Shown: positions 15,215 through 63,104, counted from the first letter of the stretch. The stretch: DNA of 64,000 bases from Candidatus Enterousia sp. (GCA_045648925.1 JAZROY010000003.1:57082-121081); one strand, 5' to 3'. Translations and numbers: made by a program. The notes: generated from the sequence alone by a model not told the origin.

Positions 15215-15267
15215 TTTAAATCCTTTTGCATTAGAATGATAACATACAAGAGGTAGGATTTTCAATA

Positions 15268-16921: not shown

Positions 16922-16996
16922 GCGAGCATAGTTCAAAGGCTAGAATGCAAGCCTTCCAAGCTTGAAATGAGGGTTCGATTCCCTCTGCTCGCACCA
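16922..16996 (+). tRNA. tRNA-Gly (anticodon UCC)
   Basis: Manual fold: acceptor gcgagca/tgctcgc, D arm gttc..gaat, anticodon stem caagc/gcttg with loop cttccaa, T arm gaggg-ttcgatt-ccctc, discriminator A, encoded CCA. Confidence 0.85.
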
Positions 16997-17018: not shown

Positions 17019-17104
17019 GGGCGCGCGCCGGAGTCGGAGAGCCGGGGCAGACTGTAAATCTGTTGTCTTTGACTGAGGTGGTTCGACTCCACCCGCTCCC
17101 ACCA
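17019..17104 (+). tRNA. tRNA-Tyr (anticodon GUA), class II with long variable arm
   Basis: Anticodon stem gcaga/tctgt with loop ctgtaaa; 13-nt variable arm; T arm ggtgg-ttcgact-ccacc; acceptor gggcgcg/cgctccc with one mismatch; CCA encoded. The 5' boundary is the least certain part. Confidence 0.7.
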
Positions 17105-17109
17105 AAATA

Positions 17110-17140
17110 AAAATCACACCCTTGCGGTGTGTTTTTTATT
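17110..17140 (+). terminator. Intrinsic terminator after tRNA-Gly/tRNA-Tyr
   Basis: cacacc-cttgc-ggtgtg hairpin followed by T6. Confidence 0.7.
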
Positions 17141-17198
17141 TTGTGGTCGTGGTTAAATTTATGTGTTACAATTATTTTGTAATCAAAAAGGATTTGTT

Positions 17199-17450
17199 AT
17201 GTCGCGGATTTGTCAGAGTTGTGCCATGCCTATGGACGATTCACAATTGTTTGGAACAAATAAAGATGGTTCCAGAAATTCTGATTATTGTATGTATTGT
17301 TATAAAAATGGTGAATTTGTCGATAATGTGTCGATGGAAAAATATATTGATATGATGATACCTTTTTCGGCGCAGGCAAATATGACACCGGACCAGATGC
17401 GTAAATATTGTGAAGAAGTTTTTCCAACACTGAAACGATGGAAAAAATAA
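17199..17450 (+). CDS. Putative zinc-ribbon domain protein
   Basis: Start at 17199 (AAGGA 9 nt upstream); MSRICQSCAMPM...DYCMYCYKNGEF matches the 'putative zinc ribbon' CxxC...CxxC family; 83 aa. Confidence 0.55.
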   Translation: MSRICQSCAMPMDDSQLFGTNKDGSRNSDYCMYCYKNGEFVDNVSMEKYIDMMIPFSAQANMTPDQMRKYCEEVFPTLKRWKK

Positions 17451-17465
17451 AAAAACTTCATTGTA

Positions 17466-18113
17466 TCAAAGAATATTATTTTTTAACGCCAATTCAACCA
17501 AAGTTTTACCTTTATACAGAAAATCTGTCGCACCATCTGGCAACCCTTTTACTTCATTGTTTGGATTTATTTTATTACGATAATCTTTAGCTGCTTTTGA
17601 AATCGTATTTGTTGTCCCATCTGGCATAGCCACGATACGAGAATCATTATAAGTTTTTACTGTATATTTAGGATTACCAACAAATGTTAATATTGTACCC
17701 TTTGGCAATCCAAGCTTTTTAAACGTAATTTTTGATCGCTGTTTTCTTACTTTTTGTATTACTTTTTTATCTTTAGATAACATTATATTATCTATTGTGA
17801 TTTCTTCTGCATCACCGCTAAGAGTGTATGTTCGTAGCAGACAAATCGCTTCTTCTACACTTAATTTAAAAAATTCACGATGAGAATTATGGCGAAGCTT
17901 ACCAAGAGCCTTGTGAATCATGGGTTCTATCTTATTATAATTATTAACACAAATTGCGAATTTTGCTTCGAATGGTTGTGGCATGTTTTCGCCATGTGAT
18001 AATTCTTTGCGACGCTTTTCAACATCTTTTGATGTACTGCCTTTTGTAACGCCTATTTTTACCAAGTCCGGAAATAATTCATTCCACATTACATATATAA
18101 TTCCACGTGTCAT
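17466..18113 (-). CDS. T5orf172/GIY-YIG-like domain protein with DUF4357-like C-terminal region
   Basis: Start at internal ATG 18113 (AAAGGA SD); GIIYVMWNELFPDLVKIGVTKG...RRKELS is the T5orf172 (Mug113) GIY-YIG-like signature; a basic C-terminal domain follows. Confidence 0.5.
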   Translation of the reverse strand: MTRGIIYVMWNELFPDLVKIGVTKGSTSKDVEKRRKELSHGENMPQPFEAKFAICVNNYNKIEPMIHKALGKLRHNSHREFFKLSVEEAICLLRTYTLSGDAEEITIDNIMLSKDKKVIQKVRKQRSKITFKKLGLPKGTILTFVGNPKYTVKTYNDSRIVAMPDGTTNTISKAAKDYRNKINPNNEVKGLPDGATDFLYKGKTLVELALKNNIL

Positions 18114-18282
18114 AACAATTCCTTTTTGTATTACACATATTATTTTATCACAATTTAGGTAAACATTCAAATTTCACCCTTAGGTGAAATTGGGCATTTT
18201 TCTTTAAACTCTTTTACCCCAAACATTAAATCGGCAAACCGTTGCTTATTTTCTGCTAAGATAGTGCAAGCAGTCCCATAAC

Positions 18283-18317
18283 AAAAAAACGCACCAAATT
18301 GGTGCGTTTTAATTTTT
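18283..18317. terminator. Bidirectional intrinsic terminator in non-coding gap
   Basis: A7-acgcacc-aaatt-ggtgcgt-TTTAATTTTT. Confidence 0.55.
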
Positions 18318-18526
18318 ACAACACTTAGCAATTAGAATATGCGGCCGAATAAACCACCATCCAAAGCCAATGTTAACAATATCCACCACCAAGAACATTT
18401 AAGAACATTAACTAATTTCAATATGATAAATATCAATGTCAGCATTTTTGACTCCTTTTGTTTGACACAATATGATTATATTCTATTTTATGAATTTTTG
18501 CAATCAACATTTTACAATGCGCGATA

Positions 18527-18567
18527 TAAAAAAAACCGGGTTATCAAATAACCCGGTATTTCTTTTT
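18527..18567. terminator. Bidirectional intrinsic terminator at the 3' end of the 88-aa gene
   Basis: A8-accgggttat-caaa-taacccggt-atttcttttt. Confidence 0.6.
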
Positions 18568-18832
18568 ATTTCACTGGCGGGAAACAATTATCGCCAATTT
18601 CTGGGCAACATACCATCCATCCATCCCCGGCATCGGTATAAGTTTCCCCGGCACAGCAACCGTTTTTATCTGGGCTTTCGCCATTTGGACATGTTGCAAA
18701 AAATCCGTTCCAGTTTGAAATAGTATAATGGGCGGCATAACCAATTATTCCACCAGCAAAAAAAGCAATTACCACCCATAACCATAATCTAGATTTTTTA
18801 TTTGTTGTTTGTTTAGCTACAACTTTTTTCAT
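18566..18832 (-). CDS. Small Cys-rich membrane-anchored protein, hypothetical
   Basis: 88 aa; N-terminal TM (LWLWVVIAFFAGGIIGYAA) followed by a CC..C..CC..C periplasmic tail. Confidence 0.4.
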   Translation of the reverse strand: MKKVVAKQTTNKKSRLWLWVVIAFFAGGIIGYAAHYTISNWNGFFATCPNGESPDKNGCCAGETYTDAGDGWMVCCPEIGDNCFPPVK

Positions 18833-18843
18833 TTTGTTTCCCC

Positions 18844-19551
18844 CTATTCTTCTATGATTTTTTCAAGCTCTATTATAAAATCAATTGCAGGACTGGTCAA
18901 CTTTTTTGCTTTTTCAATCATCCGTTCCGCTTCCTTTTGCATTTGAAGACGTTTATAAGTTTCAACAATTTCAATTGTATCATCAACATCTTCTAAATCA
19001 TCATCATTTAATGCACGCGCGATATCAAGTTCTTGTGCAGCCAAATCTTTATATTTTTTTGAATTTTCTGGACATCCGCGTTCGGACAAATTCGCATAAA
19101 TTTTTGCATTATCAATATGTGCCTCTGCATCTGGATTATCCGCGGGATATAATCTTGCCATTAATAAATTTTCGATTTTTCCACATGTTGTTTCTGGTAA
19201 TTTCTTTTTTTCAACCTTTGGTGTGGGCTGTGTTTTTGGTTGTTCAAACTCACGATTCAAACAATTCATTGAATATAATTCATTTGCAATCTTTAATTGT
19301 TCAAATTGATTCGTATAAATCAAATTGCTTATTCTGTCTGATAACTGTTTACATTGACTTTCCGACATTGTTGAACGATTAACATGGTCGGCACCATTTA
19401 ATATATAACCAAAAATTACCCCGGTCAAAAACAGCGCAACCATACCAATTATGCCGTATACACGATTTTTATTTGATTCTGTATTTTTTATTTCTGTTTT
19501 TGATTCTATATTTTTAACAACTTTCTTTTTCATATCTCTCTCCTTTATCAA
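18844..19551 (-). CDS. Membrane-anchored hypothetical protein
   Basis: 235 aa; single N-terminal TM (IIGMVALFLTGVIFGYIL), acidic C-terminus; directly downstream of lolD in the same orientation. Confidence 0.4.
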   Translation of the reverse strand: MIKERDMKKKVVKNIESKTEIKNTESNKNRVYGIIGMVALFLTGVIFGYILNGADHVNRSTMSESQCKQLSDRISNLIYTNQFEQLKIANELYSMNCLNREFEQPKTQPTPKVEKKKLPETTCGKIENLLMARLYPADNPDAEAHIDNAKIYANLSERGCPENSKKYKDLAAQELDIARALNDDDLEDVDDTIEIVETYKRLQMQKEAERMIEKAKKLTSPAIDFIIELEKIIEE

Positions 19552-34353: not shown

Positions 34354-34428
34354 TGGCGGCGTAGCTCAGTGGTAGAGCAGAGGAATCATAATCCTTTGGT
34401 CAGGGGTCCGAATCCCTTCGCCGCTACC
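34354..34428 (+). tRNA. tRNA-Met (anticodon CAU), elongator type (could alternatively be tRNA-Ile2 read with lysidine)
   Basis: Acceptor ggcggcg/cgccgct (G1-U72), D arm gctc-agtggta-gagc, anticodon loop atCATaa, T arm, CCA encoded; lacks the initiator hallmarks. Confidence 0.8.
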
Positions 34429-34759
34429 AAAATAACAAACGACCTTTGTGGTCGTTTTTTATTTTGATATCTGGGATTTGGACACCGGCACAGGGGTCCG
34501 ACCCGCAGCAAAAAGGCGGAATAACGCCGGTTTGCCGTCAGGCAAATTTTGCAAGGGAGTGAAGCGCAGCGAAACAATCCCTTCGCCGCTACCAAAATAA
34601 TAAATGACCCTTGTGGTCATTTTTTATTTTGATATCTGGGATTTGGACACCGGCACAGGGGTCCGACCCGTAGCAAAAAGGCGGAATAACGCCGGTTTGC
34701 CGTCAGGCAAATTTTGCAAGGGAGTGAAGCGCAGCGAAACAATCCCTTCGCCGCTACCA
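34429..34759 (+). repeat. Two tandem ~166-bp units (34429-34594, 34595-34759), each = terminator hairpin + GC-richer structured body + exact copy of the last ~20 nt of tRNA-Met
   Basis: The units are >90% identical; each ends ...gcagcgaaacaatcccttcgccgctacca, reproducing the tRNA T-arm/acceptor 3' end. Internal hairpins gggtc-c-gaccc, ggcg-gaataa-cgcc, tttgcc-gtcag-gcaaa. Confidence 0.85.
34436..34462 (+). terminator. Intrinsic terminator immediately after tRNA-Met; a second copy sits inside repeat unit 2
   Basis: acgacc-tttgt-ggtcgt + T6. Confidence 0.6.
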
Positions 34760-49775: not shown

Positions 49776-49852
<77 letters not shown>

Positions 49853-50385: not shown

Positions 50386-51387
50386 TTAAACATCCAATTT
50401 ATTTTGATAATTCCAAGAATCACGACACATATCATCCAAAGAATATTCTGCAACCCATCCCAATACGCGTTTCGCTTTTTCTGGATTGGCATAGCACATC
50501 GCGACATCGCCGGGTCGCCGCGCTATAATTTCATACGGGATTTTTATCTTATTTACTTTTTCAAAGGTTTTTATTACATCCAATACAGAATATCCATGCC
50601 CTGTTCCCAGATTAAATATTTCCAAACCACACTTTTTATCAATCGCGAACATTGCGCACACATGCCCACGCGCCAAATCAACCACATGGATATAATCCCT
50701 GACGCCTGTGCCATCAGGTGTATCATAATCATTGCCATATACAAACAATTTTTCACGTTTTCCACACGCAACTTGGGTAATATAAGGCATCAAATTATTT
50801 GGGATACCGTTCGGGTTTTCACCAATCAAACCTGATGGATGTGCGCCAACAGGGTTAAAATAACGCAAAATAACAACATTCATATCTGGGTTTGCTTTTT
50901 GCATATCCACCAAAATTTGTTCTATCATATGTTTGGTCCAACCATATGGATTTGTACATATACCTTTTGGGCATTCTTCGGTAATCGGCACAAATGCAGG
51001 TATTCCATAAACAGTTGCACTGGACGAAAAAATAATATTTTTGCATCCTATTTCATTTAAAACATTTAACAAAGATATTGTCCCAGAAATGTTATTATCG
51101 TAATATTCAACAGGTTTAACCACAGATTCTCCGACAGCCTTTAACCCAGCAAAATGAATACAAGCGTCAATTTTGTACCCAGACAAGAAATTTTTTAATA
51201 CATCTTTATCGCGGATATCGATATTTGAAAATTCTATTTTTTTACCTGTAATTTTTTGAATATTATCCAAAACATTAATTGATGAATTACATAAATTATC
51301 TATACCAACGATATCAAAACCATTATTTTGCAATTCAACAATTGTATGCGAAGCAATAAATCCTGTGGCACCTGTTACTAGAATCAT
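50386..51387 (-). CDS. galE: UDP-glucose 4-epimerase
   Basis: 333 aa; MILVTGATGFIASH Rossmann motif, YxxxK, GalE-like throughout. Confidence 0.85.
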   Translation of the reverse strand: MILVTGATGFIASHTIVELQNNGFDIVGIDNLCNSSINVLDNIQKITGKKIEFSNIDIRDKDVLKNFLSGYKIDACIHFAGLKAVGESVVKPVEYYDNNISGTISLLNVLNEIGCKNIIFSSSATVYGIPAFVPITEECPKGICTNPYGWTKHMIEQILVDMQKANPDMNVVILRYFNPVGAHPSGLIGENPNGIPNNLMPYITQVACGKREKLFVYGNDYDTPDGTGVRDYIHVVDLARGHVCAMFAIDKKCGLEIFNLGTGHGYSVLDVIKTFEKVNKIKIPYEIIARRPGDVAMCYANPEKAKRVLGWVAEYSLDDMCRDSWNYQNKLDV

Positions 51388-51484
51388 TTTTTACCTTTTT
51401 ACTTGTCTTTCATCCTATTTTTGATTCAGCAGTAATTATCCATATCTATATCATACAAATCTATAACTATGTGGCCCAATAAAA

Positions 51485-51763
51485 TCAATCTAATCTGGTA
51501 AATTCTACATAAGTATATTCAGTATCATTTGTCATATCTGGTATTTTTGTTTTATCAAGACCGGACCAATCGACCCACTTTCCGCTTGATTCCAGAGCTT
51601 TTACATTCTGCACCCATTCTAAATCCGAAGGACATTTATAAACAATATGTGTAGATGTTTTTGCTATTCTTTCGCAATCGGTCATTGTGTTTTCTATATT
51701 TTTGCTATCATTATAACATCCGCCCAACACAAGAACAGGTAATATTAACAATAGAAATTTCAT
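51485..51763 (-). CDS. Small hypothetical lipoprotein
   Basis: 92 aa; lipobox VLGGCYN. Confidence 0.4.
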   Translation of the reverse strand: MKFLLLILPVLVLGGCYNDSKNIENTMTDCERIAKTSTHIVYKCPSDLEWVQNVKALESSGKWVDWSGLDKTKIPDMTNDTEYTYVEFTRLD

Positions 51764-51945
51764 AAAAACCCCTTTCGCTTATACTGGTAAGTATACTTTA
51801 AAATTTGTTTTTTCGCAATATGTATTTAACATGGGTCTATTAAATTCCGCATAAATTTTACATTCGATTACAAAAACATTCAAATTGGCATACAGCAAGT
51901 ATACATAATCAAAATCCTAAACCAAGGAATTTGATTATGTATTTT

Positions 51946-54900
51946 TTACAAAGTAGTCAACCAAGATAAATCTGATGAACACAATAATCCAAGTTGTTTA
52001 TCACTTTTATAAATTGCTTCTTTGAATAATATATTTTTTTCTGTTAATTTTGACTTTAACATTGACCAGGTTTCTTGTTCCCCTATACGATTCATATCAT
52101 CCAATAAAATTACAAAAGATTTATCCAGATTATCAACAATATCCAATATTTCTGGTCTGGAATAATGTGCACTACCCAAAGGTCCATCAATCATCACAAG
52201 ATTAAATTTTTTACCTTTGATAACTGATTCAAAACCTTTATAAGTTCTAGATTCATGCTCAGGAACAATATGTACCATTTCAGTATCCAAAATTTTTGTA
52301 TATTTATCAGCTGTGGGAAATTGAAGTTTAAAGAACGACAACCAATCTTGGTTATTTTCACAAATCATCAACTTTGCTTTATATGCATCAGCATATTGAA
52401 TTGTTAATTTAGAACTTTGACCAAGTCCACACTCTAATATAGATTGTGGTTTAATTTCATCTAGTATTCTAAACAAAACATATAAAACAATATACGACAC
52501 TGCCCAGCGACCAGGCGATACAGATTTATCTTTTAACCAAACGCTGTTTAATATAGTATCATGATAAACATTTGCCCAATAAGGTTCCATGTTTAATAAA
52601 GAAAATTTATGTTGAACATTGATAAAAAAATCTTGCATATTTTTCATACTAATTTCATGCTGTTTATTAATACAATCCAATTGTAAATTCAATTGCAAAT
52701 TCAATTCGTTAATATGCTTTTCCAACTTATCTATACTACTACGCGTGCTGTGAGAATACATAACTTGTTTTATATGTCTTCTAAATTTTGCCAAAGGCAA
52801 AGAAACAACATTCATCCATACGGTTGCGAGCAAGTAATACGGGAATAAAACATAACTTTTTACATGATTATCTTTGTACAAAAATGCTAATTTAGATTTA
52901 TCATATCGTTTTAATAAATGTTTCATATCTTTGATATATAACTTTTTATCTGTCTGATCCAGCTTTACAAAATCATTCACCAGAATTCCTAAATACGAAT
53001 TCACATAATTATTGAATGTTTTTTTATTTATTTTACACTGTTTCAAATACCCAAGAAGTATATCTGTTATTTTCAAAAAATCCGCAAAATGGTGATTCCG
53101 AGTTTGTGTTGTAGATTTAGGATGTAATCTACGACAATACAATTTCTCATTTAATATTCCACACGCAGATGCCTTGGTTAACCCTTTGACAAAGAAAACA
53201 TTGTCTTCGAAAAAAAGTTCTTCTGGAAATTGTAAATTATTTTTTTCTATAAAAGAATGTTTATAAATTGTTAAACATGTTGATACAGCCATTAAATGTG
53301 CAAAATCTAAACAATCTTTAAACGAAAAAACTGTCTTGTTCCAATTTTGTGGTAAATAATTAAAATCCCAAAGTTTATTTGGTTCCATAATATCTGTTCC
53401 ATCTTTAAAATTTCTACCACTGAACATCAACATATCTAAATTGTTTTTATTTGCATATGTATATAATTTTTCAATAGCATTTAATTGCAGATAGTCATCA
53501 GAATCTACAAATTGAATATAATGACCTTTGGCTATATTTAAAGCTTGATTTCTTGCAGTTCCTTGTTTTCTATTAACACGATTATCTATTACTTTTATTC
53601 TAGAATCTTTATCAGCATATTTTTTAATGATATTCAATGAATTATCTGTTGAACCATCATTTACACAGATAATTTCAATATTTTTCTCTGTTTGATTAAT
53701 AACAGAATCTAAACATTTTTCTAAATATTTTTCTGTATTATAAACAGGTATTATAACAGAAACTTTTACATCATAGGATTCATTGTTATTTGACTGTAAT
53801 ATTTTATTCTTTTCAATATATTCATTTGGATTATTCATAATCATTTGTAAATCAGACCATTGATTATTGTTGAAATATTTTTTATCAATATCACCATGTT
53901 TTTTGTGTTGTTTAAATTCTTTACCAATGGCTGTTAAATATTCCGGCCAATATTCAACATCCAAACGCGCAATCATATGATAAATATACGCATTAAATTT
54001 ACGCAAAAAATAAACAGGAAGCAATTTAGCCACTTTTTTATGTTTCGCAAATATATTATCAATAAAATGATATTCATTTGGAATTGTCCAAACATTATTC
54101 TTTTTCTTTATAGACTGATTTGGATTATCTTGGCGGTAACAATAAAATACACAGTTCATAAAATATACTTTATCTGCCAAATATGTTGTTTGTGCCCAAA
54201 AACCATTATCTTGATATGCAGCCCCAGGGGTTTCATTATGACGGATTTTATATTTATCCAAAAAGGAATGTTTAAATATTCCCGCTGGATTAATAGCAAA
54301 AATATACAATATTTTTTCATCTTTTTCGGGTGTTAAAACACGGTTATAAAAACTCTCTGGCGCATTAAATACTTTTTTATTTGTATATCTATATTGTTTG
54401 TTTTCACCTGTAAATTCACAATAATCAGCCTTGATAACATCCAAATCTAATTCTTTTGCCTTATTATATAATGTTTCATACATATCAGGTTTAATAAAAT
54501 CATCAGGTTCAACAATACCAATATATTCACCGCACGCTAAATCAATACCACAATTCATTGTTTGACCATAACCTGCATTTGGTTTATCGATATATTTAAC
54601 ACGTTTGTCTTTATCAGCATATTCTTTAATGATATTCAATGAATTATCTGTTGAACCATCATTAACACAAATAATTTCAATATCTTTTAATGTCTGATTA
54701 ACAACGCTGTCCAAACATTCACGTAAATAAGGTTCCGCATTATAAATTGGCAGAACAACTGAAACTTTTGGTGACTCTTTCATAATATCTTTTCGAAACA
54801 TATAAGATTTATCTGGCTCATAAAAATATTTTGTATCATATAAGTGACGATATATATCCAAATCATACACCAGTTTATTTTGTAAATCGTTTAAAAGTTT

Positions 54901-55845
54901 GCTTTTTACCTCTACATCTTTAATTGAATTGTAATTATATAAAGCTCCAGACAAAACACAATTTACAAAAGATTGTTCATAAATATCGTATATTTTCATC
55001 TTCTGTAATTCTTTCTTTACAGACATTGATGCTGTATACCAATCCAAAGGACTTTTATGGTTATTAGACTGTAAACTGCTATTATTTCCAACACGATAAT
55101 GCCCTAAACATTCTTGTATAACAGACATTCTTTTTGCTTTTACCAGTGCCATAAAGACAAAGTATAAATCATTTGTTCTTGATAAAGATTGAAAATACAA
55201 TTTATTAGCTTTAATAAAATTATGATTAAACATTTTATTCCATGGCCAACTACACGAAAAATTAAAAATGTATTTTGAAATATCTTGTGCAGAAAACACG
55301 TCATTATTTGGCATATACTTGTTTGACAGCAACCAATTTTGTGGGGAATATTTTTTTGAACCGGTATCATACGCATCTGTTCTATAAATAACAATATCCA
55401 AATTTTTGTTTGTCGCCAAAGAATATGCATTTTTTAACATATTTAACTCAAAAAAATCATCACTATCTAAAAAAGATAAATACTCACCTTTAGCAACAGC
55501 AAGACCTGCATTACGGGCAACACCAGCATATAAATTTTTTTGCGTAATAACTGTAATTCTATTATCTTTTTTTGCATATTCTTTCAATATTTCCAGAGAA
55601 TTATCAGTTGAACCATCGTCAACACAAATTATTTCAATGTCGTGTAAAGTTTGATTTACTATTGAATCTAAACATTCGCGCAAATATTGTTCAACATTAT
55701 AAACAGGAATAATCACAGAAACCTTTGGGATATAATCAATCTTGTTTTGAATCAAAATAGTAGCATCAGTATCTTTGATACCATCCGCATTTCGCACACT
55801 AATCATGGCATGTTTTTTTGTTTGCTTTGTTTCTGTTTTTTTCAT
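51946..55845 (-). CDS. Multidomain glycan synthase: three tandem GT2 glycosyltransferase modules + coiled-coil segment + C-terminal class-I SAM-methyltransferase-like domain
   Basis: 1299 aa. GT2 signature (VSV[IV]IPVYN.E.YL..CLDS..NQT...IE[IV]ICV[DN]DGSTDNSL.I[LI]KEYA.KD.R[IV]) occurs three times (~aa 43, ~365, ~694), each with a DxD downstream (LDSDD / VEPDD / VDSDD). Coiled coil SSIDKLEKHINELNLQLNLQLDCINKQ. C-terminal ILECGLGQSS...LVMIDGP resembles MTase motif I / post-I. Confidence 0.75.
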   Translation of the reverse strand: MKKTETKQTKKHAMISVRNADGIKDTDATILIQNKIDYIPKVSVIIPVYNVEQYLRECLDSIVNQTLHDIEIICVDDGSTDNSLEILKEYAKKDNRITVITQKNLYAGVARNAGLAVAKGEYLSFLDSDDFFELNMLKNAYSLATNKNLDIVIYRTDAYDTGSKKYSPQNWLLSNKYMPNNDVFSAQDISKYIFNFSCSWPWNKMFNHNFIKANKLYFQSLSRTNDLYFVFMALVKAKRMSVIQECLGHYRVGNNSSLQSNNHKSPLDWYTASMSVKKELQKMKIYDIYEQSFVNCVLSGALYNYNSIKDVEVKSKLLNDLQNKLVYDLDIYRHLYDTKYFYEPDKSYMFRKDIMKESPKVSVVLPIYNAEPYLRECLDSVVNQTLKDIEIICVNDGSTDNSLNIIKEYADKDKRVKYIDKPNAGYGQTMNCGIDLACGEYIGIVEPDDFIKPDMYETLYNKAKELDLDVIKADYCEFTGENKQYRYTNKKVFNAPESFYNRVLTPEKDEKILYIFAINPAGIFKHSFLDKYKIRHNETPGAAYQDNGFWAQTTYLADKVYFMNCVFYCYRQDNPNQSIKKKNNVWTIPNEYHFIDNIFAKHKKVAKLLPVYFLRKFNAYIYHMIARLDVEYWPEYLTAIGKEFKQHKKHGDIDKKYFNNNQWSDLQMIMNNPNEYIEKNKILQSNNNESYDVKVSVIIPVYNTEKYLEKCLDSVINQTEKNIEIICVNDGSTDNSLNIIKKYADKDSRIKVIDNRVNRKQGTARNQALNIAKGHYIQFVDSDDYLQLNAIEKLYTYANKNNLDMLMFSGRNFKDGTDIMEPNKLWDFNYLPQNWNKTVFSFKDCLDFAHLMAVSTCLTIYKHSFIEKNNLQFPEELFFEDNVFFVKGLTKASACGILNEKLYCRRLHPKSTTQTRNHHFADFLKITDILLGYLKQCKINKKTFNNYVNSYLGILVNDFVKLDQTDKKLYIKDMKHLLKRYDKSKLAFLYKDNHVKSYVLFPYYLLATVWMNVVSLPLAKFRRHIKQVMYSHSTRSSIDKLEKHINELNLQLNLQLDCINKQHEISMKNMQDFFINVQHKFSLLNMEPYWANVYHDTILNSVWLKDKSVSPGRWAVSYIVLYVLFRILDEIKPQSILECGLGQSSKLTIQYADAYKAKLMICENNQDWLSFFKLQFPTADKYTKILDTEMVHIVPEHESRTYKGFESVIKGKKFNLVMIDGPLGSAHYSRPEILDIVDNLDKSFVILLDDMNRIGEQETWSMLKSKLTEKNILFKEAIYKSDKQLGLLCSSDLSWLTTL

Positions 55846-55846
55846 T

Positions 55847-57013
55847 TTATTTCCCTATAATTTTATTAAATGTTTCAAACGCACCTTGGATTGTTCGATT
55901 CATATCATAATATCTGTATGCACCCAATCTGCCTAAGAAATATACATTTGATAATTTTTTTGCTTCTTCGAAATATCTATCATAAATTGCTTGGTTTGTT
56001 GGATTTAATATTGGATAAATTCGTTCGTTTTTGCCATTTTCAAAATCTTCTGGATATTCAAAAGTCAATACAGTTTTGTCTGATTTTTCATTTAAAAACC
56101 ATTTGTTTTCTGTAATTCTTGTAAAATCATAATTTTCAGGATAATTTACAACTGCAGCATTTTGAAAATGTGACACATTAAATGTTTCTATTCTTATATC
56201 CAAACTGCGATACGGTAATTTACCAAACTTGTAATCGAAATATTCTTCTATGGCGCCAGTATAAAATAGACGCTTGTATTTTATTGATTTTTTCAGTTTT
56301 TCAAAATTTGTATTCAACATTACACTTATATTTGGGTGTGCCAACATACGTTCAAACATCACAGTATAACCATCACGTGGAATTCCTTGAAACCGTTCTT
56401 GGAAATAACGACTATCGCGACCGATAAATACTGGGACAGAACCCGTAACAGATGGATCTAGTTGTTCTGGACTTAATCCCCATTGTTTAAGGGTATAGTT
56501 TAAAAATACTTTTTTATAAATGTAATCAGCCAAAAAGTTTAAATCTTCATCGTTTGTTTTACGTAATTCCAGAATAGGAACCTTGGTATTAAAACCAAAC
56601 TTTGCAATTAATTTTCCTTCTAATTTATTTGCCAAAGTTTCTGGCAACGCACGATGTAAAGAATCTAGATTAAACGGAATTGGAACTTCTATACCGTCAA
56701 TTATACCAAGAACGCGATGCATAAATGGATTCCAAGTCGTATATTTAGATAAAAAATTCCATACTTCTGTAGAATTAGTTCTGAAAATGTGGGGGCCATA
56801 TTTATGAACATGAATGCCTGTCTCATTGTCAATATAATCAAAACAAGTGCCGCCAATATGGTCTTTCTTGTCAATAATCACAACAGGTTCATTTAATTCC
56901 GTAGCGATTTTGTTTGCCATTACTATTCCAGATAACCCACACCCAACAATAAAATTCGTATTCTCATTTACAGAACTAGTATCTGATATGTATCTTACAT
57001 TTTGCTTTACCAT
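55847..57013 (-). CDS. glf: UDP-galactopyranose mutase
   Basis: 388 aa; FAD motif FIVGCGLSGIVMA, Glf-like throughout, canonical length. Confidence 0.85.
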   Translation of the reverse strand: MVKQNVRYISDTSSVNENTNFIVGCGLSGIVMANKIATELNEPVVIIDKKDHIGGTCFDYIDNETGIHVHKYGPHIFRTNSTEVWNFLSKYTTWNPFMHRVLGIIDGIEVPIPFNLDSLHRALPETLANKLEGKLIAKFGFNTKVPILELRKTNDEDLNFLADYIYKKVFLNYTLKQWGLSPEQLDPSVTGSVPVFIGRDSRYFQERFQGIPRDGYTVMFERMLAHPNISVMLNTNFEKLKKSIKYKRLFYTGAIEEYFDYKFGKLPYRSLDIRIETFNVSHFQNAAVVNYPENYDFTRITENKWFLNEKSDKTVLTFEYPEDFENGKNERIYPILNPTNQAIYDRYFEEAKKLSNVYFLGRLGAYRYYDMNRTIQGAFETFNKIIGK

Positions 57014-57195
57014 AACACAACCCCATCATTTACTATTTTTAATTTGTCTGATTTTATCTTTTAACCTGTGGTATTTATTGTGAACTTTTATTGGATATTT
57101 AAAAAATCTTAAATCACAAATATGTCTTATAAAATGCATGTTTGTTTCCTTTGTCTTATTTTCAGATTTTTTCATGCTTTAAACATTATTATGGG

Positions 57196-57224
57196 AATTT
57201 TAGCAATAAAAAATAAATAATGCA
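57196..57224 (-). promoter_or_regulatory. Candidate sigma70-type promoter (TTGCAT-17-TAAAAT) for the glf / multidomain GT operon
   Basis: Minus strand ttgcat (57224-57219), 17-nt spacer, taaaat (57201-57196), within a 317-bp AT-rich intergenic region upstream of glf. Confidence 0.35.
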
Positions 57225-57330
57225 AGCCGGCCGCAAAAACTATTTAACAATGAAAATTAAAGGTTTATACCGGGTTTATTCATACAATCAGTGTAATAAT
57301 TTGAACATAAAATACATATAAATTTTACAA

Positions 57331-58374
57331 CTATCTCTTATAACTTAAAATTTTTATTCCACAAAAATACACATGTATTCTACCATTTGAACAATATTCT
57401 TTTGCGAATAAGAAATTTCTTTTAATTACAGAATCTGGCGCAAAATGTAATTTATAACTAAGAAATTTTATTCCAAATATATAAAATTTATGGCGTCCAT
57501 TTATAAAAGTATGTTTAAAAACAAAACTTAATATATATCTAACAATACTTGTTTTAATTTGATAACAGTTATTATACTTGTCCCATAAAGCACTGCCAGG
57601 GGCACCCTCAGAATTCCAAGGTTTCTTTTTATTTGTTAAATGTAAAATTACAGGTTTTTTTAATATTTTTTCTATATCTTTTTCTTGATAAAAATCAGAA
57701 ATTTCATTGTCTGGATAATCTAAATTTTGTACCATACAATTATATTTCAAAGAAACATATATAACATTTTCATTAAACACCTGATTCAAAGCATCTTGGT
57801 CCATAAAGTGTTTATATTTATCATGTTTTTTTGCATAAAGTAATTTATCAGTACTATTATTTTCGCGCATTTTTTTTAAATTTAACAACATCATACCAGA
57901 ATTAAAATATTTATCTATCCCCAGTTTTAGATGATGTTTTTCATTAACCATTGCTTTCATATCAGTAACAACCGCAGCATATTTTCCATTTAAATTTGTA
58001 CTATACAAATCATATAAATCACCTAAAATTAACATATCTCCATCTAAATATAAAATTTTATCCAAATCCGGAAACATATTTGGTAAATTAAATTTTAACA
58101 TTGCGGCTTTACTTACATGCTGATGTGTTGTTTGAATATCAGAATAAATATTTTCAGTATTTATTACATATATATTTACATTGTGCTCTTTTAATTTCTT
58201 AAATTTATTTATTATCTTTTCAGCCACATCAACAGCAATAATATAGATATTATACATTGTGTCTTTTTTACAATTTTCAATCAAAGATTCAATAGCCACA
58301 CCCGTAGGAACCGCATAATTTGTATCAGTTATAAAACAAATATTTACTGTTCTTTTCATTTTTTTATTTTTCAT
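57331..58374 (-). CDS. Glycosyltransferase family 8 (LPS alpha-1,2/1,3-glycosyltransferase-like)
   Basis: 347 aa; N-terminal VNICFITDTNYAVPTGVAIESL, DxD (YLDGDMLILGD), HxxGxxKPW (HLTNKKKPW). Confidence 0.65.
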   Translation of the reverse strand: MKNKKMKRTVNICFITDTNYAVPTGVAIESLIENCKKDTMYNIYIIAVDVAEKIINKFKKLKEHNVNIYVINTENIYSDIQTTHQHVSKAAMLKFNLPNMFPDLDKILYLDGDMLILGDLYDLYSTNLNGKYAAVVTDMKAMVNEKHHLKLGIDKYFNSGMMLLNLKKMRENNSTDKLLYAKKHDKYKHFMDQDALNQVFNENVIYVSLKYNCMVQNLDYPDNEISDFYQEKDIEKILKKPVILHLTNKKKPWNSEGAPGSALWDKYNNCYQIKTSIVRYILSFVFKHTFINGRHKFYIFGIKFLSYKLHFAPDSVIKRNFLFAKEYCSNGRIHVYFCGIKILSYKR

Positions 58375-59293
58375 AAGTTTTTATAATATCAGATATTGTT
58401 TGTTGTAATGTATATTTTTGATTCCATCCTAATTCTTTTTTTAATTTAGTGTTATCCCCAATAACCGAAGAAATTTCGTTAGCACGAATACGCGATGAAT
58501 CTATAATTATATTTGGTTTGATATTTAATTCCTTTGCAGTTGTGTTTATTATATCGCGCAATTTAACCCCTTGACCACTGCATACATTATAAACACTGCG
58601 ATTTTGCGCATTTTTAATTATTAAATAATACGCATTAACAACATCACGAACATCTGTAAAATCACGAACCACATCAATATTACCAACCATCATTTTATTT
58701 TCGCTTTTTCCTTTTGATATATTCACCAACTGTTCAATAAAAGATGGTATAACAAAACGAGTATTTTGACGCGGACCAATATGATTAAAAGAACGTGTCA
58801 TTACAATATCCATATTAAAATTATCAACATATAATTTTGACATATATTCTTGTGATAAACGAGCAACTGAATACGGACTTTTTGGATGTAAATTTAAATC
58901 TTCAGTCATTGGGTTATCATATATTCCGTATTCTTCAGACGAACCAACAGATAAAATTCTTGTTTTTAATTTATTATTACGCACAGCATCAGCCAAATTC
59001 AAAAATGCCGACATATTATTCATAAAACAATTTGCTGGTTCTTTCCAACTTTGTGCCACAGAAGACATAGCAGCTAAATGAACAATATAATCAGGTTTCA
59101 AAGACCTTACTATCCTGTTTACCTGTTCATTATCCATCAGATTCAAAGATCTGTATTTAATATTCATGTCACATTTTGGTGTTATATCAATTCCATATAT
59201 TTTTGATTCAGGTTCTTTTTCATTAAGATATTCTACAAAATATCTTCCAACAAAGCCCATAACACCTGTTATTAAATACTTACTCATATACAC
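58364..59293 (-). CDS. rmd: GDP-4-dehydro-6-deoxy-D-mannose reductase (Rmd-like, GDP-D-rhamnose forming)
   Basis: 309 aa SDR; GVMGFVGRY, YSVARLSQEY; block-wise similarity to Pseudomonas Rmd (RSFNHIGPRQ..FVIPSF, GNIDVVRDFTDVRDVVNAY, VYNVCSGQGVKLRDII); adjacent to gmd. Confidence 0.65.
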   Translation of the reverse strand: MYMSKYLITGVMGFVGRYFVEYLNEKEPESKIYGIDITPKCDMNIKYRSLNLMDNEQVNRIVRSLKPDYIVHLAAMSSVAQSWKEPANCFMNNMSAFLNLADAVRNNKLKTRILSVGSSEEYGIYDNPMTEDLNLHPKSPYSVARLSQEYMSKLYVDNFNMDIVMTRSFNHIGPRQNTRFVIPSFIEQLVNISKGKSENKMMVGNIDVVRDFTDVRDVVNAYYLIIKNAQNRSVYNVCSGQGVKLRDIINTTAKELNIKPNIIIDSSRIRANEISSVIGDNTKLKKELGWNQKYTLQQTISDIIKTYEK

Positions 59294-59301
59294 TACCTTT
59301 A

Positions 59302-60351
59302 TTATCTTTGAGGTTGTTTCAGCGTTTTTTCCATTTTTACCAATTTTAAATCTTCAGCAACCATTTCTTGTGCCAAAGTTTTCCAAGTATATGTTGGTTT
59401 CCAGCCCAATTGAGTTCTTGCCTTTGTTGAATCACCTAATAACAAATCAACTTCGGCTGGACGGAAGAATTGTGGGTCCACAGCGACAACAGTTTTACCA
59501 GTTTTTTTATCAACTGCCTTTTCATTAACACCATTGCCAGACCATTCTAAATCAAAACCAGCTTCTTTAAAAGCAACCTTTACAAAATCACGAATAGATG
59601 TAGTAACACCTGTGGCCAAAACATAATCCGATGGTTTTTCTGCTTGTAATATACGCCACATACCTTCGACATAATCTTTGGCATGACCCCAATCGCGTTT
59701 GGAATCCATATTCCCAAGATATAAACAATCTTGAAGACCTTCTTTGATTCTGGCTGCTGCTAATGTAATTTTGCGTGTCACAAAATTATCACCGCGTCTT
59801 GGACTTTCATGATTAAACAAAATACCATTGCACGCAAATATGCCATAAGATTCACGATAATTCACAGTAATCCAATAACCATATAATTTAGCCACACCAT
59901 ACGGAGAACGCGGATAAAACGGTGTTTTTTCAGACTGAATTGGTTCTTGAATTAAACCAAATAACTCAGATGTAGATGCCTGGTAAAATCTTGTTTTTTT
60001 ATCCAACCCATTTGTATGGATTGCCTCTAATAAACGCAAAACACCAATCGCGTCAGATTCTGCAGTAAATTCTGGACAATCCCATGATATTTTAACATGT
60101 GATTGTGCAGCCAAATTATAAACTTCATCTGGTTGTAATTGACGAACTAAATTATTTAAATTTGTAGAATCTGTCATATCACCATAATGCAAATGTATTT
60201 TATCAGATATATGGTCTATTCTTTGTGTATTCGGTACAGAAGCACGACGAACAATACCATGAACTTCATAACCTTTACCCAATAACAATTCTGCCAAATA
60301 TGAACCATCTTGTCCTGTAATACCTGTAATCAAAGCAACTTTTTTTGTCAT
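59302..60351 (-). CDS. gmd: GDP-mannose 4,6-dehydratase
   Basis: 349 aa; [38 protein letters not shown] is the canonical Gmd N-terminus; YGVAKLY catalytic motif. Confidence 0.9.
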
Positions 60352-60368
60352 ATCCTACCTTTTTATTA

Positions 60369-61616
60369 TTAATTTTCCTGATTAATTGTTTTTATGATTA
60401 TATCAACTGTATTTTCCCAAGAAAACAGTCCACTCCTTTTTAAACCTTTCTTTGCCATTTCGTCACGATATTTTTTATCCATATAATATTTTTCATATGC
60501 AGCGATATGTTGTTCATCACTGTCCCAATCTATCATAATTCCAGCATCACCAACAACCTCTGGCAAAGATGAATTATTTGATGTAATTACCGGACATCCA
60601 CACTTCATTGCTTCCAATGGTGGCAAACCAAAACCTTCGTATTGACTGGTATAAACAAAAAATTCTGCACCACTATAAAGTGCAGCCAAATCTTCATCAT
60701 CTATATAACCAGCACGAATAATTTTATCTTTATATTTACCCAAATCTTTTATCTCTTGTTCTAATTTACCAATAAATTCATCCCAATGCGCACCACCAAG
60801 AACAAATACCATATCATCAATTTTATTCTTTTTGATAAATTCTATAAATGTCTTAACAGCACGAATCAAATTTTTACGTGGCTCTAATGTACATAAACTG
60901 AATACATATTTTTTATCTGTTGGTATATTATATTTTTTACAAACTTGTTTTATTTTATTTTTATCTTTTTCTTGATAAAAATTATCACTTGCTGCCAATG
61001 GCATAATAGTTATATCATCTGGATTCATATTTAATAATCTAACAAAATCATTTTTACAAGATTGCGATATAGCAAAATATTTACAGTTTGGTTTAGATTT
61101 AATATATTTTATCAAGTGATAAAACCAATGTTGTTTTGATAAATAATATTCTGGAATTAACAAAGGTATTGTATCATATAAAACAATATATTTATGTGTT
61201 GCTTTCACTTTTTTAGACATATATGTCCATGCGGAAAAAGCAATATCAAAAGTCGGTAATTTAACAAATTTTCCAATAAATCTTACAGGTTTTCTAACGA
61301 GTATATTTAACAGTAATTTTAAAATATTATGTTTTTTATTACGCAATTTTGCATCTAAAACTTGCATTTTTGCCAAAAACATTCCACAACGATTGCCAAA
61401 ATAAATTTTAACATTTTCCCCAAAATTATTTTTTATAAAATTTGCAAATTTTTCATTATACATAGTATCACAATACAAAGATACATCAAATTCATTAGAT
61501 TTAAAAATATGTTTTAATATATTAAATTCTGTAAAAAATATCCCTGTTCTACCACGTTCTGCCATATAACTTTCAGCAATAATAGTCGCATCAAAAAGTA
61601 ATGTTTTATTTTTCAT
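60369..61616 (-). CDS. Glycosyltransferase family 4
   Basis: 415 aa; [20 protein letters not shown]4 (GT-B) signature. Confidence 0.75.
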
Positions 61617-61624
61617 ATCAATAC

Positions 61625-62635
61625 CTATTTTTCAAACTCACTTTTGTTTGGGAATTTTGTTTCAAAAAATTGTCTATTATGTTCATATGTTTCTTTTGTA
61701 GAATAAATACTGTCATTTATACAAACAACTGGCGCTTTACAAGATAAAACATTTGACTTGATTGCATCATTACAGAAAAATACTGAATTTTTTATAGATT
61801 TATAATTAACCAAATTATACAAAAAATCTAAAATAATATTATGTCCAACATGTTTTGAATGAGAAACAATTACATCTGCACGATTTTTTACAACATCGTA
61901 CAAATTAAAAACCAACCGATGAACATCATTTTCATCACGAAAACGATGATATTTTGTATTGTCTATATATTTCGAAAGTATTGGATGTTCACAACACTCT
62001 TTTATTGAAGATTTTATATATGGGTCAATACCATGCGAAGATTTATATTGATATAAATCAATACTAAAAACATCTTCAATAGCATGTGCTGAATTTATCA
62101 ATAATTTTAAATATATACTCTTTTCATCACGAAGATGCTTGCCATTTTTTCGCCGTATACAACGAAACTTTGCGCGTCCATTTTTATTAAAAAAATAATC
62201 TGGTTTAATCGGTTTATTAAAAAACATATCATCATTAGATAATAAAAAATATTCTGATAAATTTGGAATATTTGCAAGACATGCCTCAACTGCACAAGAA
62301 TTAAATATTGGACCAGCGTCCGATGGTAAAATAGATTCTTGGGGAACAATTGTAATTTTTGGATTTTTTGTATCCAACCAAGATGGAATCTGACCCAAAG
62401 CAGTCACAATATAAATATGATTTATCCATGGCGCATTTTGCTCTATTGAACGCAAAGAATATTTTAATTCATCATTATCACGAAAAATTTCATCCCTGAC
62501 ATCATCAACATATTTATTTGTATCTTTTTTACTTTCTTTTAAATATTTATTTTTTTCTGAATTAAACTTGGCATCACGGCTATCCACCCACAAATAAACA
62601 ATATCTATTGGAAAAATACTATTCATTTTAGTCAT
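61625..62635 (-). CDS. Stealth-family protein (capsular polysaccharide hexose-1-phosphoryltransferase family)
   Basis: 336 aa; CR1 IDIVYLWVDSRDAKF, CR2 NDELKYSLRSIEQNAPWINHIYIVT, CR3/CR4-like downstream blocks. Confidence 0.65.
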   Translation of the reverse strand: MTKMNSIFPIDIVYLWVDSRDAKFNSEKNKYLKESKKDTNKYVDDVRDEIFRDNDELKYSLRSIEQNAPWINHIYIVTALGQIPSWLDTKNPKITIVPQESILPSDAGPIFNSCAVEACLANIPNLSEYFLLSNDDMFFNKPIKPDYFFNKNGRAKFRCIRRKNGKHLRDEKSIYLKLLINSAHAIEDVFSIDLYQYKSSHGIDPYIKSSIKECCEHPILSKYIDNTKYHRFRDENDVHRLVFNLYDVVKNRADVIVSHSKHVGHNIILDFLYNLVNYKSIKNSVFFCNDAIKSNVLSCKAPVVCINDSIYSTKETYEHNRQFFETKFPNKSEFEK

Positions 62636-62699
62636 ATTAAACCTATTTGAACCACAGGCTAGGATTTTAGACTATAAAATACGATAAATCAAGTATTTA

Positions 62700-62740
62700 T
62701 AAGAAAAACACCCCTTCCGGGGTGTATTTTTATTTTTAAT
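62700..62740. terminator. Intrinsic terminator separating the tail-fibre-like genes from the glycan operon
   Basis: acacccc-ttcc-ggggtgt hairpin with T/A runs on both sides; sits just downstream (minus sense) of the 118-aa gene stop. Confidence 0.6.
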
Positions 62741-63092
62741 CTGTTAAATAAGGAATTTTTTTCTTTATTTCTTTAATTTTTTCATTTCGTTCAAATATTA
62801 AATTATTAATTTTTTTTATAACTTCCTCTGTTTGTTCTTCATCACGCAAACGGCTGATATGCGCTGTAATTGGGTCAATTTCTGTTAAGTATGCTTGCGC
62901 CCGTTTTTCACTCTGTTCTTCTTGCGTTGGTGCTGGTATATCTGATAACAACAAATATTCACCATTATATGCGCCAAAATCTGATATCGTATGCTCTGTA
63001 TCTTCGACCACTTTATCTTTTATTAAACAGAAAAACTTATTATCTGTATCAGATATTGCTATGATTTTACTATCTTTTATTGCTTTATACAT
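62736..63092 (-). CDS. Small protein resembling phage tail-fibre assembly chaperones (Tfa / Caudo_TAP-like), tentative
   Basis: 118 aa; ...ISDFGAYNGEYLLLSDIPAPTQEE... resembles the Tfa N-terminal segment; lies immediately downstream of a tail-fibre-like gene. Confidence 0.35.
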   Translation of the reverse strand: MYKAIKDSKIIAISDTDNKFFCLIKDKVVEDTEHTISDFGAYNGEYLLLSDIPAPTQEEQSEKRAQAYLTEIDPITAHISRLRDEEQTEEVIKKINNLIFERNEKIKEIKKKIPYLTD

Positions 63093-63104
63093 AACTTTAC
63101 TCCT

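Follow-up and report, generated by a model that had tools for sequence, protein, structure and literature searches.

What kind of DNA lies between the lolCD genes and a tRNA-Gly/tRNA-Tyr pair in Candidatus Enterousia sp., and what is a nuclease-like gene doing there? The question is raised by positions 17105-19551 of a 64-kb stretch of its DNA (GCA_045648925.1 JAZROY010000003.1:57082-121081), which we call the window and to which all coordinates without a locus label refer. A preliminary description had treated these positions as a single accessory islet, made up of a zinc-ribbon protein, a protein with a T5orf172 nuclease-like domain, a non-coding gap and two small membrane-anchored proteins. 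An islet of that extent is not borne out, as the two membrane-anchored proteins (p88 and p235) show core synteny after lolCD. We think it probable instead that 17105-18286 is the decayed, recombinase-less remnant of an element integrated at tRNA-Tyr, and that its cargo is a candidate stand-alone restriction endonuclease.

The gene at the centre of this reading (17466-18113), convergent with the zinc-ribbon gene, encodes a protein of 215 amino acids (aa), whose N-terminal domain had rightly been recognised as T5orf172, of GIY-YIG type. Residues 4-90 match both PF10544 (T5orf172; 51.6 bits against a cut-off of 20, E 1.4e-13) and PF13455 (MUG113; 39.6 bits against a cut-off of 22.3, E 8e-10), and in an AlphaFold2 (AF2) model of the protein (predicted local distance difference test, pLDDT, 86.7) this domain has the GIY-YIG fold. 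In 43 close and 70 diverse distant relatives, residues Y7, K19-I20-G21, R34 and E80 do not vary or are shared by at least 90%; by analogy with the phage protein described in PMC10448857, they are putatively of catalytic type. The C-terminal half of the model shares the fold of the solved RAMA domains of CcrM and MPND, with the C-terminal RAMA domain of CcrM as its closest structural match. A homologue, P0147, aligns to residues 4-212 and thus across both domains (hhalign probability 99%); its own C-terminal domain, present as a near-identical tandem copy, matches RAMA (PF18755; E 3.7e-9, 36.9 bits against a cut-off of 35.2, in two stretches). A RAMA match was found in 3 of 70 diverse relatives, and the usual NGW motif of RAMA reads DGA-DF in the window protein. 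By fold, and by way of this intermediate homologue, the C-terminal half is best described as a divergent RAMA domain. A DUF4357-like domain had been proposed for it; PF14267 gave no match in the whole protein (E<=1), in the C-terminal half (E<=10) or in the 70 relatives (E<=0.01). The guess was a reasonable recognition of a small DNA-binding module, yet RAMA is the family supported here.

Over its full length the protein matches the PADLOC candidate defence family PDC-S57 (profile PDLC05041: E 2.3e-42, 143 bits, residues 2-209 against profile positions 4-203 of 212; second profile PDLC05043: E 1e-27). A whole-library profile search returned 1749 cluster representatives at E<=1e-10, and among the matches listed from it most are 200-220 aa long with both domains covered. 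A profile-sequence search of the PDB with the family gave nothing below E 0.7, a scan of the islet proteins against NCBIfam gave no family for any of them, and the name PDC-S57 itself was not found in a literature search. Compared with the sister strain (locus L001; locus labels are ours), the window gene is intact, has its own Shine-Dalgarno sequence and promoter-like site, and differs by two non-synonymous and three synonymous changes. The nearest public record, with a T5orf172 protein 99% identical, is the rumen metagenome-assembled genome (MAG) 'uncultured proteobacterium RUG11635'. The genome had been taken for that of an endosymbiont, an idea that finds no support in its nearest records, which are gut and rumen MAGs (RUG11635 and relatives named Candidatus Enterousia).

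The mobile or accessory nature claimed for this gene is supported by its relatives. Full-length close homologues number 47 (56-99% identical), and 14 loci were found in GTDB species representative genomes, all of gut or rumen Alphaproteobacteria and several named Candidatus Enterousia. Thirteen other species carry the T5orf172-RAMA protein at 59-70% identity, and outside the window species none of its loci adjoins lolCD. For nearly all of them a tRNA gene stands 0.2-8 kb away on the other strand, with six different tRNAs represented: tRNA-Asn (L007), tRNA-Gln (L010, L012, L020, L026, L029), tRNA-Met (L014, L021), tRNA-Pro (L015, L018, L019), tRNA-Ser (L016) and tRNA-Tyr (L017). A tRNA is not visible in L011, L013 and L022, two of which are short contigs. 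In L010, L020, L021, L026 and L029 the gene is enclosed by direct repeats of at least 24 nucleotides (nt) of the tRNA 3' end, which delimit elements of 5.4-6.9 kb bounded by such attachment (att) sites. The tyrosine-integrase elements have a fixed layout, with the integrase beside the tRNA, then four or five small genes, and at the tRNA-distal end a surface-protein gene followed by T5orf172, both pointing inward. These surface-protein ('moron') genes are mutually unrelated. A conserved upstream partner of T5orf172 was sought and ruled out, the upstream open reading frames (ORFs) being unrelated lipoproteins or an outer-membrane beta-barrel protein.

A second type of carrier (L017, L023-L025) combines a serine recombinase with a terminase. 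Here the order is a ParB-fused N6_N4 methyltransferase, DUF5681, the terminase large subunit, a lipoprotein, T5orf172, a variable slot, DUF2924 and a large serine recombinase. In that slot we find a KAP NTPase (PADLOC PDC-S20), an EcoO109I restriction-modification (R-M) pair or a ThsB-type TIR protein. Association with these defence genes is thus seen in some relatives, lipoprotein and integrase modules elsewhere, and no such defence gene accompanies T5orf172-RAMA in the window.

Where, then, does the islet of the window begin and end? It starts at 17105, directly 3' of the tRNA-Tyr end at 17104. For the other end, L001 and L017 are informative. L001 has an extra 1.2 kb with two lipoprotein genes between tRNA-Tyr and the zinc-ribbon gene (Zn_ribbon_2), absent from the window and bounded by a perfect 12-nt repeat, CTCCCACCAAAA, with its second copy at L001 7016-7027. 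In L017 there are three perfect copies of the tRNA-Tyr 3' end (780, 1015 and 2111; 11-12 nt) in addition to the tRNA at 15248; a T5orf172-bearing 13-kb element occupies the space between 2111 and the tRNA, and a homologue of a 37-aa ORF of the window lies just outside the outermost copy. Immediately inside these L001 and L017 repeats runs a conserved stretch of about 95 bp (aligned as window 18172-18272, L001 7028-7107 and L017 2124-2230; conserved element-end sequence is also seen at L001 5830-5920 and in L017 as far as 2260), whose motif GATTTAATG..GTTTAAAGAAAAATG was found only at tRNA-Tyr cassettes. In the window, TCCCATAACAAAA (18274-18286) comes next after this end sequence, with the 37-aa ORF terminator beyond it; weak on its own, TCCCATAACAAAA was identified by positional homology in the alignment with the perfect repeats of L001 and L017. 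Because of the end sequence and degenerate repeat at 18172-18286, as read from this comparison, we place the islet at 17105-18286, which would give it about 1.2 kb and two genes only, Zn_ribbon_2 and T5orf172, or about half the size first proposed.

The att arrays of L001 and L017 also suggest that the hairpin at 18286-18310 is probably the displaced original terminator of tRNA-Tyr. A conserved element of 200-270 nt follows tRNA-Tyr directly in every relative examined (L001 7985-8252, L032 8690-8958, L033 7795-7996, L034 8525-8725, L017 775-1020) but was not found in the window; its parts are a terminator hairpin, further hairpins inside it and, distally, a degenerate copy of about 25 nt of the tRNA-Tyr 3' end (..TTATTGTGTATCGAGGnCnCACCC..), and it has no Rfam match. 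A deletion between the 12-nt repeats seems to have removed both this element and the lipoprotein cassette from the window. The hairpin that stands after tRNA-Tyr in the window (17115-17131) has its counterpart in L001 after the internal att copy, not after the tRNA. As for the element-end sequence, its substitutions look coding-like (..AENKQxFxDLMxxVKxFKEKW/C..) in a frame crossing the att repeat, although one copy has no start codon; it may be a recombinase-binding arm or the 3' part of a gene that is whole only across attP in the excised circle. A 54-aa ORF at 18167-18331 was considered as a gene and rejected: its C-terminal 30 or so codons are coding-like in three copies, but the copy in the first L001 cassette has no start codon.

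The segment so delimited has a different recent history from its surroundings. Synonymous divergence (dS) from L001 is 0.19-0.46 in six core genes (p444, LolC, LolD, LppC, TP_methylase and EngB), 0.19 and thus core-like in the 37-aa ORF, and 0.12 in p88; it is 0.022 in T5orf172 and 0.023 in Zn_ribbon_2, about ten-fold below the flanking core genes. Synonymous differences amount to 4 of 181 sites in the islet against 350 of 1397 in the core (Fisher p 3e-16), and nucleotide identity to L001 is 99-100% over 17201-18200 against 90-96% in the flanks. This combination of low dS and high identity points to a late event: the att-bounded segment was exchanged between the window and L001 lineages long after their split. 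The route may have been site-specific transfer, homologous recombination with the tRNA and the end sequence as arms, or nuclease-promoted conversion.

The remainder of the region is chromosome. Three relatives of increasing distance, L034, L033 (GCA_045606425.1) and L032, whose p235 homologues are 67%, about 61% and 35% identical to that of the window, share the order ftsA-ftsQ-...-lolC-lolD-p235-p88 on one side and tRNA-Tyr-tRNA-Gly-(GH3)-LppC-TP_methylase-EngB on the other; the tRNA-Gly/tRNA-Tyr pair flanks the variable region in L001 and L017 as well. Homologues of p235 number 746, are 210-300 aa long and always follow lolD in the loci examined, and copies of p88 (59-82% identical) come directly after p235 in L032, L033 and L034. 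Because this order after lolCD is conserved in relatives down to 35% identity, p88 and p235 are lineage core genes and lie outside the islet.

Between p88 and tRNA-Tyr, each relative holds something else. The window has the 37-aa ORF, T5orf172 and Zn_ribbon_2; the sister strain (L001/L009) has DUF4160, the 37-aa ORF, T5orf172, Zn_ribbon_2 and two lipoprotein genes; L034 has DUF4160, the 37-aa ORF and an unrelated 215-aa lipoprotein; L032 has three unrelated ORFs and Zn_ribbon_2; and L033 has Zn_ribbon_2 and a 74-aa ORF only, an 'empty' arrangement without T5orf172. The DUF4160 gene stands in place of the window terminator region 18535-18557 in L001, L034 and L038. T5orf172-RAMA and, in part, the 37-aa ORF are the only genes of the window region that vary between relatives. 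The preliminary description had itself named conserved gene order next to lolCD as a sign of core synteny rather than of an islet: such order is found for p88 and p235, and Zn_ribbon_2 is also syntenic, but it does not extend to T5orf172-RAMA, which is variable among relatives. Zn_ribbon_2 copies 70-71% identical to that of the window, a level like that of core proteins, sit at the tRNA-Tyr side in L032 and L033, both without T5orf172. A functional pairing of the two genes was ruled out when their co-occurrence was checked: they occur together only in the window species and in one other, L013, at a distance of 2.6 kb, and each is found alone elsewhere, so that they do not form a conserved module.

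Some further observations concern the same genes and the same site. In L013 (1835-2560), a Candidatus Enterousia MAG, Zn_ribbon_2 is fused to a C-terminal extension of about 160 aa, giving a 241-aa protein that forms a divergent pair with the homologue of the 37-aa ORF. The middle of p235 (19201-19400) is about 70% identical to L001, its ends and neighbours 89-100%, and this segment is thus hypervariable within a lineage-specific envelope protein that is conserved elsewhere along its length. In L032 (7780-8076) the hotspot holds alternative cargo, a 98-aa protein with a weak match to the ASCH domain (E 0.0011), another predicted reader of modified bases. Contigs of the close strains L035, L036 and L037, from three independent metagenome assemblies, end within or just after p88; assemblies typically break at strain-variable sites, and these contig ends are consistent with strain heterogeneity at a hotspot.

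The history that we favour is then the following. A mobile element would have integrated at the 3' end of tRNA-Tyr, at a strain-variable hotspot between the last core gene (p88, the 37-aa ORF also lying outside the islet) and the tRNA. Its defining cargo would be the 215-aa protein in which a T5orf172 nuclease domain, with Tyr7, Arg34 and Glu80 kept, is followed by a C-terminal DNA-binding domain of RAMA type. Incoming phage or foreign DNA would be cut by the T5orf172 domain, with RAMA docking the protein on double-stranded DNA (dsDNA) and perhaps sensing adenine methylation there. The window lineage would have kept no more than the cargo end, which was recently exchanged between strains together with Zn_ribbon_2. 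We infer a defence role because the gene is found at the cargo end of integrative elements, stands beside a slot that swaps known defence genes and survives the decay of its carrier. A stand-alone endonuclease acting on foreign DNA is favoured because the literature provides for each part of it: T5orf172 is a GIY-YIG subfamily, in which glutamate-dependent nuclease activity was shown for one phage protein (PMC10448857); RAMA was defined through fusions to adenine methylases and nucleases, T5orf172 included, in N6-methyladenine (m6A) R-M contexts (PMC4738411); and GIY-YIG-RAMA fusions have been named as candidate type IV, methyl-adenine-dependent restriction enzymes (PMC11037411).

Several points weigh against this reading. 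With regard to the element, the islet contains no integrase or recombinase gene, and tblastn across all 64 kb with the integrase, serine recombinase and methyltransferase of relatives gave no match; were it not aligned with those of L001 and L017, the degenerate distal repeat would carry little conviction. Zn_ribbon_2 may not have come with the element but be ancestral chromosome that the exchange swept along, in which case the low-dS tract may be no more than a tract of homologous recombination. Base composition is not deviant either: GC and GC at third codon positions (GC3) of the islet genes lie within 1.3-1.6 standard deviations of long ORFs (for T5orf172, 0.324 and 0.213 against 0.367 +/- 0.033 and 0.290 +/- 0.047) and the profile has no step, so composition was dropped as an islet marker. 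With regard to the protein, residues 100-215 scanned alone at E<=10 give no Pfam RAMA match, and PDC-S57 is only a candidate, one of 145 (bioRxiv 10.1101/2024.01.29.577857). The RAMA domain of MPND bound dsDNA regardless of N6-methyladenine, so that methyl-adenine reading was not reproduced, and both solved RAMA domains contact the DNA backbone only (PMC9963953); on discrimination of N6-methyladenine by RAMA the literature is divided (PMC6591016 vs PMC9963953). Finally, the gene stands alone in the window, not within a defence island, and in the serine-recombinase elements it is constant as its neighbours vary, which fits a function in the element core as well as it fits defence.

Could T5orf172-RAMA instead be a selfish gene of the homing-endonuclease kind, one that cuts the empty allele, is copied in by repair and drags flanking markers along without benefit to the host? 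We regard this as unlikely, for all that speaks in its favour. In ICP1-, T5- and other phages most of the putative homing endonucleases come from T5orf172 genes, which lie most often near terminases and at exchange boundaries (PMC10448857), and in L017 and L023-L025 the gene lies one gene downstream of a terminase. It is carried by unrelated element backbones with unrelated neighbours, and a short tract of ten-fold lower dS that includes the zinc-ribbon gene resembles a co-conversion tract. However, full-length identity of 56-99% across many species, with the catalytic-type residues intact, is more than would be expected of a cycling selfish gene. In both solved cases the contacts of RAMA with DNA are not sequence-specific (PMC9963953), whereas phage T5orf172 homing enzymes use repeated Zn-finger modules, and the PDC-S57 family was picked up embedded in BREX, DISARM and type I R-M loci. 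Nor did we find an empty and filled allele pair with a recognisable target site, the empty arrangement being seen only in the distant relative L033.

Somewhat more doubtful is the idea of a domesticated element component without a role in defence, such as a DNA-binding regulator or a replication or packaging helper like CapR, of which the window copy would be a functionless leftover. The intact window copy has outlived the rest of its element, which argues for an element-independent function, the catalytic-type residues are kept, and the full-length match is to PDC-S57, a family found away from such elements. These points have to be set against the constancy of the gene in serine-recombinase elements, beside terminase and lipoprotein genes and next to a slot that varies, against its presence in two different element types, and against the domestication of T5orf172 proteins as repressors in PLE satellites (bioRxiv 10.1101/2020.11.28.402263; PMC10448857).

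A more elaborate version of the restriction hypothesis, which we consider a long shot, would make T5orf172-RAMA a solitary nuclease that takes the genome-wide adenine methylation of its host as a 'self' mark and cuts unmethylated incoming DNA. In Alphaproteobacteria the mark would come from CcrM, the cell-cycle methyltransferase, or could come, in larger elements, from the ParB-fused N6_N4 enzyme, which is found only in the serine-recombinase elements of relatives and has no counterpart adjacent to the window gene. If true, this would be an R-M system in which a housekeeping or element-core enzyme does the modifying, and the survival of the nuclease as an orphan gene after decay of the element would therefore be explained.

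That there is no islet, the whole of 17105-19551 being conserved core chromosome of the lineage, is hardly credible: the order of p235, p88 and Zn_ribbon_2 between lolD and tRNA-Tyr is kept in L032 and L033 and neither GC nor GC3 is deviant, but T5orf172-RAMA is absent here from L032, L033 and L034, occurs at other tRNAs in other species and has a dS ten-fold below the core, and every relative examined has something different between p88 and tRNA-Tyr, so this reading is contradicted for the T5orf172 gene and holds only for p88, p235 and possibly Zn_ribbon_2.

What remains is the gap at 18171-18565, which had been described as non-coding and as a possible source of a small RNA (sRNA). It is not empty. 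A 37-aa ORF lies on the minus strand, with AAGGAG 6 nt before its ATG, TTGCAA-17-TATAAT at 18503-18475 and a terminator (18310-18286) behind it. In L001, L013, L017 and L034 this ORF is conserved together with its Shine-Dalgarno sequence and promoter, all four nucleotide differences from L001 are synonymous, and the product matches phrog_1374 at E 1e-7; tblastn of a phage collection gave no match. A plus-strand sRNA running from after the TTGACA (which is at 18462, not at 18456 as first given) to the 18535-18557 terminator is correspondingly very improbable. To its credit, the plus strand offers a promoter-like TTGACA-16-TATTTT (18462-18489) and a hairpin plus T-run, but the region has no more promoter-like matches than chance would give (16 vs 14.1 +/- 4.6 in shuffles), the TTGACA arises by reading the 5' leader of the conserved 37-aa ORF on the opposite strand, and p88 has this hairpin as its terminator. 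Conservation is lacking for 18504-18566, where L001 has the DUF4160 gene instead, and no Rfam family reaches its gathering threshold in the gap, the best being C0465 (33.1 bits, threshold 40), ncr1015 (27.8, 60) and STnc40 (24.2, 45).

The features of the region are collected in the table below. Much of the original inventory stands: ARAGORN finds the tRNA pair directly upstream, the zinc-ribbon protein is a whole-length family match, the two bidirectional terminators are hairpins with T-runs on both strands, and the two small membrane-anchored proteins, one of them Cys-tailed, are the 88-aa and 235-aa ORFs. Unlike promoter-like matches, terminator-like sites are in excess in the region (9 vs 2.1 +/- 1.4 in shuffles). 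The start of p235 is more probably the ATG at 19533, giving 229 aa, because this ATG is preceded by AAGGAG and relatives have 229-aa gene calls.

Table. Features of the tRNA-Tyr hotspot and its flanks, in window coordinates.
Feature	Position	Strand	Evidence	Remarks
tRNA-Gly(UCC)	16922-16996	+	ARAGORN; Rfam 72 bits	core flank
tRNA-Tyr(GUA)	17019-17104	+	ARAGORN	integration target of hotspot
CTCCCACCAAAA	17096-17107	+		tRNA-Tyr 3' end + 3 nt, att-like core
Hairpin terminator after tRNA-Tyr	17115-17131			
Zn_ribbon_2 protein, 83 aa	17199-17450	+	PF12674 E 3e-30, whole-length match	
T5orf172-RAMA protein, 215 aa	17466-18113	-		T5orf172 (residues ~1-100) + RAMA-like domain (~125-212); family PADLOC PDC-S57
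Promoter-like TTGAAT-17-TAAAAT with TG	18142-18170	-	consensus scan only	5' of T5orf172-RAMA gene; putative function
Conserved element-end sequence	18172-18272	-		includes hairpin 18170-18191 and motif GATTTAATG..GTTTAAAGAAAAATG
TCCCATAACAAAA	18274-18286	+		degenerate tRNA-Tyr 3'-end copy, probable distal islet boundary
Bidirectional terminator hairpin	18286-18310			ends 37-aa ORF transcript
37-aa Trp-rich hydrophobic (membrane) protein MLTLIFIILKLVNVLKCSWWWILLTLALDGGLFGRIF	18332-18445	-		chromosomal flank of hotspot
Promoter-like TTGCAA-17-TATAAT	18475-18503	-		for 37-aa ORF
Bidirectional terminator	18535-18557			after 88-aa gene
p88, 88 aa	18566-18832	-		N-terminal hydrophobic anchor, C..CC..CC..C tail; core gene
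p235, 235 aa	18844-19551	-		N-terminal hydrophobic anchor, abuts lolD; core gene, hypervariable middle

Two other parts of the window deserve mention. At 34355-34759, tRNA-Met (34355-34429) is followed by two tandem 165-nt units, 97% identical, and both units close with the last 19 nt of tRNA-Met, AATCCCTTCGCCGCTACCA, repeated without a mismatch (the sequence stands at 34411, 34576 and 34741). A single unit has a stable fold (-58.5 kcal/mol, z -3.2), partly due to a terminator hairpin, and matches no Rfam family. The array looks like tandem mini-insertions at a tRNA 3' end. Further along, 50386-64000 is a surface-polysaccharide cluster of low GC (0.24-0.31 vs 0.36) that begins after another tRNA-Met (49776-49852), with genes for a 1299-aa triple GT2 protein, UDP-galactopyranose mutase, GT8, three proteins of GDP-mannose-dehydratase/epimerase type, GT1 and a Stealth protein.

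How does the islet compare with known systems? Its T5orf172-RAMA protein has the size and two-domain build of PDC-S57, a 'guilt by embedding' single-gene candidate, but PDC-S57 members are embedded in BREX, DISARM or type I R-M loci and the window copy is alone in a tRNA islet. The arrangement of an N-terminal T5orf172 and a C-terminal RAMA fold is that of the GIY-YIG/T5orf172-RAMA fusion nucleases (Iyer et al. 2016, PMC4738411; PMC11037411); unlike those fusions, which are predicted to be linked to adenine methylation, the window protein has a divergent RAMA domain and no adjacent methyltransferase. With the homing endonucleases of T5orf172 type in ICP1-, T5- and related phages, and with CapR and Odn, satellite proteins domesticated from them (PMC10448857, PMC8263062), it has in common the nuclease domain family, a place near a terminase in some relatives, and a position where conserved DNA meets variable DNA. 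The phage proteins, however, carry Zn-fingers of CapR/DUF723 type and belong to lytic phages, whereas the window family carries RAMA and belongs to alphaproteobacterial integrative elements. Phage matches to the window protein cover the N-terminal domain only, or reach 26% identity over 80% of the protein. Decayed tRNA-linked islets and cis-mobilisable remnants of integrative elements are an established kind. Like these, the window islet abuts a tRNA 3' end, has what may be a far-side repeat, kept its cargo, lost its recombinase and is strain-variable in content, and tandem remnants are seen in L001 and L017; unlike typical cases it is very small (1.2 kb), its distal repeat is degenerate and Zn_ribbon_2 is perhaps ancestral chromosome.

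The finding is thus real but ordinary, a small decayed tRNA islet whose cargo comes from a known candidate defence family. For annotation, the gain is that the lineage core genes p88 and p235 after lolCD are told apart from the true accessory segment, and that a conserved 37-aa membrane protein is recovered which a gene caller would miss or mis-call. For the biology of the family, PDC-S57 (T5orf172-RAMA) acquires a clear natural history in poorly known gut and rumen Alphaproteobacteria. Small integrative elements, which between them use at least six tRNA genes as targets, carry the gene as constant cargo at the end away from the tRNA; it adjoins a slot in which known defence genes are swapped, and it can persist and be exchanged after its carrier has decayed. 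This makes T5orf172-RAMA a reasonable candidate for restriction activity and for the reading of methyl-adenine by a bacterial RAMA domain.

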